Sequence record: PQ783785
Strand: one strand, 5' to 3'
Length of the DNA stretch: 56,522 bases
Origin: Escherichia phage PDP46
The notes under the pieces are model-generated. The model had not been told where the DNA came from. It saw nothing but the letters and a program-made list of their open reading frames with translations, and did no database searches. Position 1 is the first letter of the stretch. Each line of letters begins with the position of its first letter. A program made the translations under genes and the position numbers. Shown here in pieces: positions 39,520 to 41,376 of this stretch.

Positions 39520-41376
39520 TTACCGAAGTGGTGCAACGAGTTTTTCAGCTTCTTTGATGTAAAAATCATAATTGAGCGTTGCCCGGTTAAAACGTTTCAT
39601 GTCGTTACATTCCGTGGTCAACCAACCTTTACACACGGACATGCGGCGTTCAGGCGCGTCAGGGTTCAGTTTCAGTGATTTTGCCAGCGGTGGCATGACT
39701 TTTGTCAACGGTGCACCATCTGTACTGACGTAATAACGGGTAATGTTCTGAACCTGTTTATCACCCCATAATAACTTGCTGTTACGCGGCACTTTCGTCA
39801 CCAACATAAAATCGTGAATGTCTTCGTGTGATGTTATAAAATCACGAATGTCTTTATTGTGTACCAGTGCTGCTTCAGCCGCTTTTGCGACAACCTGCAT
39901 ACTGTGGTTTTGATGCCAACCCAGATCAACACTGTGACAATAAGCGCCTTTACGTTTAACTTTCTTACCACCTTCATAAACAGCGATGTAGTTATTTACA
40001 TCGCGGATAAACATCACGTCATAAATTGCTTCTTCAAGCTGGAGTCTGGTTAATTTTTCCCACGTGTGACGAACCTGTTCTACTTGTCCGGTAAATACTC
40101 GTGGTACATAAACAGTAAGACCGTCTGTGTTAGCCTGAATCATGGATAAACCAGGGATTTTCAGAAGTTCTTCAGCCAACATGCACAAAAGTAACTGTCC
40201 ATTAATCGTAATAGCCATTGTATAAGCAGGATCATAGAATGGACTGTATACGTTATTACTGTCACCATACACACCGTTTAACGCCAGTTTTAACATTGCA
40301 TTTTCTGGTGTACCTTTCGGGTAACTGGAACGCATGTCGTAAACATTTTTATAAATGGTGCAAAATTGTTTTCCCAAATGTGCAGGGTAAAGTTCATTAC
40401 TAATTGCAAGGTTTGGATAAAAACTGGCAACATCCAGATCGATGATCACATAATTTTCAGTGGACCTTATAGTTTGAGATTCAATAGACCCGTGGATACC
40501 ACCCGTACCAAAATCAAATGAGAACCCGTTAATATCTGCGCTTAAATCAGTAAACACACCTTTTGTTTCAGTGATGACCTGTTGACGTAACCAGTTAAGA
40601 ACACGATTAAATTCAGGCTGTTCAAAACGGACATAAGGGAAAATCACACTGTTCAATGCGATTGATAGTCTGTGCGTCTGTCGTGGTTTTCTGCTACCCG
40701 GTTCGAAACATTGAATACCTGATTTTTCAAGTTCCATAATGAAATAGTCTTTACCGATTTTCGTGTCATTATGGTTCATGAAATTACGACCGTATTTAGC
40801 AGAAAGTTCACGACGAAAATCTATCAGCTTTTTACTGTGTTTATAAAACATCAAAGTCGCTTTCAAATCGTGTATCAGGTATTGACGAAGCGTATCAATT
40901 TGAGAATCGGTTAAGTAAGTCCCTGGCGTAAATGGGAGGTCTTCAATGTTTTCCATTCTCATATTGAATTCAAGTGTTTTCAGACTTGTTCGTTTTGCCT
41001 GATTGTCGAAATGATGAATTTTATACAAATCAAGCTGGGGAACTATCCAGTCTTTTTCCCACACCATATGAGCAAAACGATTTTCATCACCGGCGTTAAT
41101 TATCGAATCGCCTTTTTTGTAAATGTCTGCGTTGGTGATATACATGATGTTGTTCAAAATAGAATGCTGAACAGGATAGTCGTAACCCAGATTGTTATAA
41201 CCAACTTCTTCAGCACGATGTTCACGCAAATATTCTGTGAACAGGTAAAAAGCCTGACGATCGTCGCGACGATGTGAAATCTCAAAAATATAAGGTGTTT
41301 CAGTTAACGCGTGAATAGCACCGAACAAGAAAACATTAGGATAGTTTTCAATATCGTGAACGTAAGCATCTGACAT
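39520..41376 (-). CDS. Compact family B-like DNA polymerase
   Basis: 618 aa; exonuclease-like motifs (DIE at 8-10, NNLGYD at 61-66, YLIHD at 166-170); motif A DLDVASFYPN, motif B KLALNGVYG, motif C variant ANTDG, KGAY. Confidence 0.6.
   Translation of the reverse strand: MSDAYVHDIENYPNVFLFGAIHALTETPYIFEISHRRDDRQAFYLFTEYLREHRAEEVGYNNLGYDYPVQHSILNNIMYITNADIYKKGDSIINAGDENRFAHMVWEKDWIVPQLDLYKIHHFDNQAKRTSLKTLEFNMRMENIEDLPFTPGTYLTDSQIDTLRQYLIHDLKATLMFYKHSKKLIDFRRELSAKYGRNFMNHNDTKIGKDYFIMELEKSGIQCFEPGSRKPRQTHRLSIALNSVIFPYVRFEQPEFNRVLNWLRQQVITETKGVFTDLSADINGFSFDFGTGGIHGSIESQTIRSTENYVIIDLDVASFYPNLAISNELYPAHLGKQFCTIYKNVYDMRSSYPKGTPENAMLKLALNGVYGDSNNVYSPFYDPAYTMAITINGQLLLCMLAEELLKIPGLSMIQANTDGLTVYVPRVFTGQVEQVRHTWEKLTRLQLEEAIYDVMFIRDVNNYIAVYEGGKKVKRKGAYCHSVDLGWHQNHSMQVVAKAAEAALVHNKDIRDFITSHEDIHDFMLVTKVPRNSKLLWGDKQVQNITRYYVSTDGAPLTKVMPPLAKSLKLNPDAPERRMSVCKGWLTTECNDMKRFNRATLNYDFYIKEAEKLVAPLR

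Follow-up and report, generated by a model that had tools for sequence, protein, structure and literature searches.

Polymerase gene and predicted fold

The 56,522-nt sequence of Escherichia phage PDP46 (record PQ783785; the whole stretch is referred to as the window) carries at positions 39520 to 41376 a gene for a protein of 618 amino acids (aa) that was read, in an original prediction made from the letters alone, as a compact family B-like DNA polymerase with a variant motif C. The open reading frame (ORF) is real, lies on the minus strand, and starts with ATG. The gene region shares 98.5% DNA identity with Escherichia phage vB_EcoS_PJ16 and 96-97% with Salmonella phages Sasha, Sergei, and Solent and other Sashavirus records, and "DNA polymerase" is the gene name in every annotated one of these matching records. 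The SP069 record for the orthologue cites COG0417, family B, and proteins 99-100% identical to the window polymerase are abundant in public assemblies. Judged by this near-identity to Sashavirus records at the DNA and protein level, the window is a Sashavirus-type siphophage genome. Sashavirus and Nonanavirus are listed among the clades with a family-B DNA polymerase (PolB) as the basal DNA polymerase (Yutin et al. 2024, PMC11348598). The polymerase is already annotated, belongs to an already catalogued clade, and is not new. The pairwise ratio of nonsynonymous to synonymous substitution rates (dN/dS) of the window gene was 0.03-0.04 in comparisons with Sasha, SP069, and Klebsiella phage e270.2, where synonymous sites were close to saturation. 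No second DNA polymerase was detected in the window.

The family-B assignment was upheld by profile search, structure prediction, and fold comparison. A single-sequence phmmer search against PDB gave borderline matches only (E ~0.01). Among the 60 PDB matches listed for a profile of 59 homologues there were family-B polymerases only; KOD/9N-type enzymes scored best (E 2.8e-7), and the alignment kept motifs A, B, and C as well as the KxY region in register. The motifs are not chance matches. The AlphaFold2 model made from the homologue alignment (mean pLDDT 96.3, pTM 0.92) has a family-B polymerase fold with a DEDDy exonuclease domain and a B-type right-hand palm, fingers, and thumb. The top 50 Foldseek matches of the model in PDB were family-B polymerases only (E ~1e-15). 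Structure matches in BFVD reached TM scores of 0.75-0.93 for full-length clade members and included the crAss-like cr3_1, cr11_1, cr127_1, and uncultured crAssphage enzymes as well as those of Cellulophaga, Flavobacterium, Lactococcus, and Enterococcus phages. A phi29-like assignment was tried and rejected: an hhalign comparison of the family profile with phi29 polymerase (approximate sequence) aligned the Exo II region only, at 1.9% probability. The fold is that of family B, nearer the nucleic-acid-primed branch than phi29. These results answer the comparisons with RB69 and phi29 polymerases proposed in the original prediction, and neither outcome named there as refuting it, a non-polymerase fold or chance motifs, was borne out.

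Exonuclease, palm, fingers, and thumb are folded in the same way in Thermococcus 9N/KOD/Tgo, Escherichia coli Pol II, RB69 gp43, Pol alpha, and Pol delta. With these nucleic-acid-primed PolBs the window enzyme shares Exo I-III, motif A DxxS(L/F)YP, motif B KxxxN(S/G)xYG, and the second motif-C Asp, and with the archaeal PolBs also the Gly after DTD (DTDG, here NTDG). It differs from them in having Asn at the first motif-C Asp and at the KxY Lys, in fingers about 35 residues shorter than those of the KOD type, and in overall sequence (10-17% identity). With the phi29-type PolBs it shares a compact single chain, near-identical Exo numbering, and the lack of an N-terminal domain; archaeal, bacterial, and eukaryotic PolBs have such a domain ahead of Exo I. 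The spacing between motifs A and B is as short as had been noted, with 48 residues from D315 to K363 versus 83 (D404 to K487) in 9N/KOD-type enzymes, and across the family it ranges from ~44 to 64 residues. The fingers in the model consist of two 15-residue helices (337-351 and 357-371).

Motif conservation across the clade

An exhaustive HMMER search was made, with clusters counted as representatives at 50% identity. It placed 4849 clusters in the polymerase family at an E-value limit of 1e-3, and 2063 when the limit was 1e-30; with tblastn, a homologue was found in 968 records of phages whose hosts differ widely. Conservation was scored in an alignment of the query and the 150 best representatives (151 sequences, 43-56% identity). 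Ten phage homologues that are more distant, with identities as low as 21%, were scanned by motif pattern, and six of them were aligned (21-31% identity). The ten were the crAss-like cr60_1 and cr1_1, Nonagvirus JenP2, Septimatrevirus Ab26 and PSV3, Leuconostoc phage P793, Enterococcus phage IME196, phiAxp-2, Nipunavirus TIVP-H6, and Acinetobacter PBAB25. The catalytic motifs were kept across the clade in both sets (positions and counts in Table 1).

The exonuclease motifs fit the family-B patterns for Exo I (DxE), Exo II (Nx2-3(F/Y)D), and Exo III (Yx3D) and are at least 97% conserved, and the S131-L132-K133 motif of the same domain is invariant. They stand at phi29-like positions, as originally noted (D8/E10, D66, and D170 versus D12/E14, D66, and D169 in phi29, as quoted in PMC10590003), because the protein begins directly with the exonuclease domain. 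Motif A (DLDVASFYPN) and motif B (KLALNGVYG) are both present, conserved, and aligned to archaeal PolB. From D315 onward motif A follows the DxxSLYPS pattern, and motif B follows KxxxNSxYG with Gly in place of Ser. Motif B aligns with "KILANSxYG", and its K363 and G371 occur in 151/151 sequences and N367 in 150/151. R349, on the first finger helix, is invariant.

The variant motif C is real: ANTDG stands where DTDS had been expected, and the full motif reads Q414-A-N416-T-D418-G. N416, T417, D418, and G419 each occur in all 151 sequences, and NTD(G/A) was found in 10/10 distant homologues. The KxY motif listed in the original prediction does not hold up, as the palm contains none; the slot reads N461-N462-Y463, and the sole literal K-x-Y (K209-D-Y211) lies outside and upstream of the palm. 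N461 is kept in 149 and Y463 in 150 of the 151 sequences, and both are invariant across the six aligned distant members. The pattern scan found N-x-Y in the slot in nine of the ten, cr1_1 giving no match to the search pattern. Going by these alignments, the variant motif C and the KxY-slot Asn are a signature fixed throughout the clade and no sign of decay or inactivation. A decaying or dead enzyme is disfavored because the invariant Asn is under strong purifying selection. By homology the clade takes in Sashavirus, Nonanavirus, Nonagvirus, and Septimatrevirus as well as the crAss-like phages and many more.

An extra Asp, D313 (codon 40438..40440), stands two residues before D315 in a D-x-D-V-x-S-Y-Y-P context. 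It is present in 144/151 close members and kept in the crAss-like, JenP2, and Ab26 homologues; it is missing in Leuconostoc P793 and Enterococcus IME196. D313 might be a relocated third carboxylate making up for N416.

The window gene is uninterrupted, and homologous polymerase genes elsewhere are broken up. In Klebsiella phage vB_KpnM_FZ14, two genes annotated as "DNA polymerase" flank a T5orf172 (GIY-YIG-type) gene, and in Edwardsiella phage PVN06 the homologue is divided among three ORFs. Many 50%-cluster representatives align in 2-3 stretches with a gap near query residue 270-280, which suggests a recurrent insertion site of homing elements.

Neighboring replication genes

The polymerase gene is placed in a replication module with genes for a single-stranded DNA-binding protein (SSB), a nuclease, helicases, and a primase (Table 1), and the module agrees gene for gene with the Sasha annotation. 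The primase-helicase that had been noted was recovered, with NrS-1 polymerase HBD, D5_N, and DUF5906 domains (Pfam PF22763, E 8.5e-22; PF08706, E 2e-12; PF19263, E 3e-11) and a match to PHROG 1829 "DNA primase" (E 1.9e-229). The Pfam Enc34_ssDNA-bd model matched the SSB slightly under its gathering score (E 1.7e-5).

Table 1 Features of the polymerase, its replication module, and other window genes
Feature	Position	Strand	Evidence or remark
Family-B DNA polymerase gene	39520..41376	-	618 aa, ATG start; crAss-like/9NA-like PolB clade
Exo I, D8-I-E10	41347..41355	-	D and E in all 147 sequences with a residue there, of 151 aligned; invariant in distant members
Exo II, N61-N-L-G-Y-D66	41179..41196	-	N61 147/151, D66 149/151; invariant in distant members
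Exo III, Y166-L-I-H-D170	40867..40881	-	Y166 and D170 each 149/151; invariant in distant alignment
Motif A, D313-L-D315-V-A-S-F-Y-P-N	40411..40440	-	D315 and Y320 151/151; aligns with "LDFRSLYPS" of 9N/KOD
Short fingers, helices 337-351 and 357-371, ending in motif B K363-LALNGVYG	40264..40368	-	DSSP of the model
Motif C variant, Q414-A-N416-T-D418-G, Asn for the first Asp of DTD	40120..40137	-	aligns with "DTDG" of archaeal PolB
N461-N462-Y463 in the canonical KxY slot	39988..39996	-	aligned to "KKY" of archaeal PolB
Gp2.5-like/Enc34-type SSB, directly upstream of the polymerase, same operon	41457..42452	-	PHROG 7011, E 2.8e-100
DUF2800 PD-(D/E)XK (Cas4-like) exonuclease	42468..43613	-	Pfam PF10926, E 1.6e-57; PHROG 69
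SF2 (ResIII/DEAD) helicase	44527..46188	+	Pfam ResIII, E 1.5e-22; Helicase_C, E 1e-10; PHROG 16
Stand-alone DEDDh 3'-5' exonuclease, 168 aa, T4 DexA/Rv2179c-like	46230..46736	+	Pfam PF16473; PHROG 255
Primase-helicase: archaeo-eukaryotic PrimPol, NrS-1-type helix-bundle domain, D5_N, SF3 helicase	47398..49752	+	Pfam; PHROG
RdgC homologue	1811..2725	-	PF04381, E 1e-115
Dam-type N6-adenine methyltransferase	37750..38388	-	
DUF7768/DUF4406 protein (Sasha annotation: nucleoside 2-deoxyribosyltransferase)	38264..38647	-	
ParB-HTH protein	52308..53075	+	
HD-domain protein	54434..55003	+	

The SSB gene contains a 30-bp tandem repeat (41599..41852; 8.7 copies, 93% matches) that encodes a PAAAPVAAPT-type linker. 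The SSB is 331 aa long here and 303 aa in the Sasha orthologue, whose record annotates the same repeat, so that the repeat copy number differs between strains. Between the SSB and polymerase genes, at ~41399..41414 on the minus strand, lies a GC-rich hairpin, GGGGCCATAGCGCCCC, followed by TTT, and a terminator is annotated in the same place in Sasha. The hairpin may attenuate read-through from the SSB gene to the polymerase gene. The most upstream ORF listed on the strand of the SSB-polymerase cluster (43613..44356, minus strand) encodes a 247-aa protein with a Pro/Ala-rich low-complexity center; it had no Pfam match and matched only PHROG 27827, of unknown function.

Proposed function and alternatives

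The ORF very probably encodes the phage's sole dedicated replicative DNA polymerase, a single-chain proofreading family-B enzyme that is active with its variant motifs and is presumably primed by the PrimPol-SF3 helicase. In order, the predicted domains would be an N-terminal DEDDy 3'-5' proofreading domain (residues ~1-200), a linker region, the palm, the short two-helix fingers, and the thumb. Primers from the PrimPol-SF3 helicase would be extended on a template coated by the Gp2.5-like SSB. From established PolB enzymology we infer that D315 of motif A and D418 of motif C would be the two catalytic metal ligands, that the incoming deoxynucleoside triphosphate would be held by K363, N367, and Y370 of motif B together with R349, and that Y320 would be the steric gate for the sugar. 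Proofreading would be done by the protein's own D8/E10/D66/Y166/D170 site together with the S131-L132-K133 motif. Asn416 is isosteric with Asp and uncharged. To our knowledge, the first motif-C Asp of canonical enzymes does not directly coordinate both catalytic metals.

A number of observations weigh against this proposal. Only the second of the two aspartates of the family-B motif C (DTD) is present, as N416-T-D418, and of the palm KxY the Tyr alone is kept. The missing first Asp is not disqualifying, since the accepted PolB groups piPolB, PolB2, and PolB_SITDG also lack it. No Pfam model (DNA_pol_B, DNA_pol_B_exo1) matched the polymerase above its gathering score, the NCBIfam Pol II model gave 13.6 bits against a cut-off of 570, and seven family members, the query and six longer homologues (P0141, P0145, P0147, P0153, P0167, and P0245), had zero Pfam-A matches. 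This silence is a matter of the limited reach of the models, as the profile-to-PDB and fold searches do find the relationship, and because the Pfam DNA_pol_B models miss the clade some records (e.g., of Klebsiella phages) say "hypothetical protein." The closest sequence match in PDB was an archaeal PolB at E 2.8e-7, and the PDB search returned no clade member with a solved structure. No biochemical study of any clade member was found in the literature, so that activity is inferred, nor was any study found of the NTD motif, first-aspartate substitution, or crAss PolB biochemistry that would bear on the clade's active site. No sliding-clamp gene is evident in the window, and no clamp-binding tail was seen on the polymerase (C-terminus ..KLVAPLR). 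Finally, the NrS-1-type PrimPol could in principle itself contribute DNA synthesis.

The polymerase of Enterococcus phage IME199 was considered as a characterized relative and set aside; it is the phi29-like enzyme of a terminal-repeat phage, with Asp596/Tyr639 equivalent to phi29 D458/Y500 (PMC10590003), and provides no evidence for the clade.

In Septimatrevirus Ab26 and Nipunavirus TIVP-H6, a gene annotated as "replicative clamp / processivity factor" lies directly upstream of the homologous polymerase gene (L004, 1..451, in Ab26; L010, 1..354, in TIVP-H6). The upstream neighbor of the window polymerase gene is the SSB gene, in place of a clamp gene. The polymerase C-termini read ..LSFF in Ab26 and QMSLWD in cr60_1, and a hydrophobic tail like that of relatives with an adjacent clamp gene is absent from the window enzyme.

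The substitutions NTDG for DTD and NNY for KxY could mark a catalytically dead or strongly impaired pseudo-polymerase that serves as an exonuclease or scaffold only, with the NrS-1-like PrimPol or a host polymerase copying the genome. A PrimPol with an NrS-1 polymerase-type domain is indeed encoded in the window, and archaeal PolB2, with a single motif-C Asp, was long held to be inactivated (PMC7544198). The finding of the same Asn in 151/151 diverged sequences and across genera points to selection for the residue and not to decay. The remaining polymerase-site residues (D315, Y320, K363, N367, G371, D418, and Y463) are invariant or nearly so, the whole-gene dN/dS is 0.03-0.04, and piPolB (PMC7544198) and even PolB2/Dpo2 (PMC8764526) are active without the first Asp. 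We consider a pseudo-polymerase very unlikely.

An enzyme that starts chains de novo, with the altered motif C and KxY as adaptations of the kind found in piPolB, is also very improbable. The piPolBs likewise have no Asp at the first position of motif C (PMC7544198), and the KxY region is altered here too. No specific similarity to piPolB was detectable, however, and 6 kb away lies the gene of a dedicated primase-helicase, which is conserved in relatives; in further genomes, members of the clade are accompanied by DnaG or PrimPol primases, the crAss-like phages having the DnaG type (PMC7886860).

A protein-primed PolB of the phi29/PRD1 type that initiates replication on a terminal protein at the ends of the genome, to which the near-phi29 residue numbers of Exo I/II/III, the lack of an N-terminal domain, and the similar size (618 aa versus 575 aa) might point, is extremely unlikely, as neither the TPR1 and TPR2 insertions nor a terminal protein were found.

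Stand-alone exonuclease

The separate exonuclease of the original prediction is there, as a DEDD-superfamily enzyme encoded at 46230..46736; it is a T4 DexA homologue and not a DnaQ-type proofreading subunit. Pfam PF16473 (Rv2179c-like) matched the 168-aa protein over its full length with 165 bits, the cut-off being 27 (E 1.8e-48), and RNase_T matched with E 1.8e-5. The translation contains the catalytic set D7, E9, D102, H148, and D153. The full-length PF16473 match and the DEDDh residues are common to T4 DexA and Mycobacterium tuberculosis Rv2179c-like enzymes. The T4 DexA-type matches span ~590 nt in T4-like genomes, the window protein being shorter. By tblastn, homologues were found in 1840 phage records, including dexA of T4-like phages (~28% identity) and lambdoid phages. 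The NCBIfam epsilon-subunit models scored far below their cut-offs (PRK05601, 14.2 bits versus 550), so that the protein does not classify as DnaQ.

It has been weighed whether proofreading is really done in trans by this enzyme, in the manner of the Pol III epsilon subunit, the exonuclease domain of the polymerase being vestigial. It is encoded within the replication module and belongs, as DnaQ does, to the DEDDh superfamily. The polymerase, however, keeps a complete exonuclease site of its own, with the Exo I/II/III residues and S131-L-K133 conserved, and the epsilon-subunit models stay at 14 bits against 550. Among the 1840 records the T4 DexA homologue also occurs in lambdoid phages without a polymerase and in T4-like phages with a self-proofreading polymerase, which argues against a trans proofreader; such a role is scarcely credible. 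The enzyme is probably an independent DexA-type nuclease and no polymerase subunit, likely acting in the turnover of single-stranded DNA or oligonucleotides, and its presence implies nothing unusual about the polymerase.

The stop of the exonuclease gene overlaps by 4 nt with a 163-aa ORF (46733..47224, plus strand) that matched PHROG 93 "endonuclease" (E 3e-21) and no Pfam model. Translation of this ORF is probably coupled to that of the exonuclease gene.

Relationship to known polymerase groups

The window polymerase shows full-length homology to the "crAss-like" PolB group, an EpsilonN-like clade (Kazlauskas, Krupovic et al. 2020), with tblastn E values of 1e-60 for cr60_1 and 1e-47 for cr1_1. 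NTDG is common to cr60_1, cr1_1, and the window enzyme, NxY is shared with cr60_1, and short fingers are common to the group. Nothing substantive differs in the window protein, the Sashavirus ortholog. In Kazlauskas et al. 2020 (PMC7544198), motif C and KxY are said to deviate strongly in the crAss-like group, and these are exactly the two differences found in the window enzyme. The data set of that study includes a close homologue of the 9NA type along with several phage sequences that carry NTDG, all labelled "PolBmain." By homology and by its divergent motif C and KxY, the window polymerase would fall within the crAss-like group, and the formal label for the Sasha/9NA branch could be that of a neighboring group. 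PMC7544198 also describes piPolBs that lack the first motif-C Asp and yet polymerize efficiently, and PolB2 and PolB_SITDG that also lack it. Thus piPolB, highly active, and archaeal PolB2/PolB_SITDG, of which PolB2 is active in translesion synthesis, are precedents for the window enzyme; they differ from it in having other replacement residues and in belonging to other clades, and no specific homology to them was detected.

That the Asp-to-Asn change in motif C, the Lys-to-Asn change in KxY, and the minimal fingers jointly define a mechanistically distinct family-B active site with only two metal-facing carboxylates is unlikely. If it were true, metal preference, primer-terminus handling (e.g., efficient extension of PrimPol-made DNA primers), or fidelity would possibly be altered, with perhaps some de novo initiation as in piPolB, and the change would concern a phage replicase clade that, with its crAss-like members, is among the most abundant.

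For the window alone the finding has little consequence, as this is the expected, annotated replicase of a Sashavirus-type phage. The clade is very large (4849 50%-identity clusters and ~970 sequenced phages, gut crAss-like phages included), is invisible to Pfam, and has fixed substitutions at two positions of the canonical catalytic site. A structure or kinetic data for any one member would close a gap in family-B enzymology, and an enzyme of the window type might serve as a useful compact proofreading polymerase.

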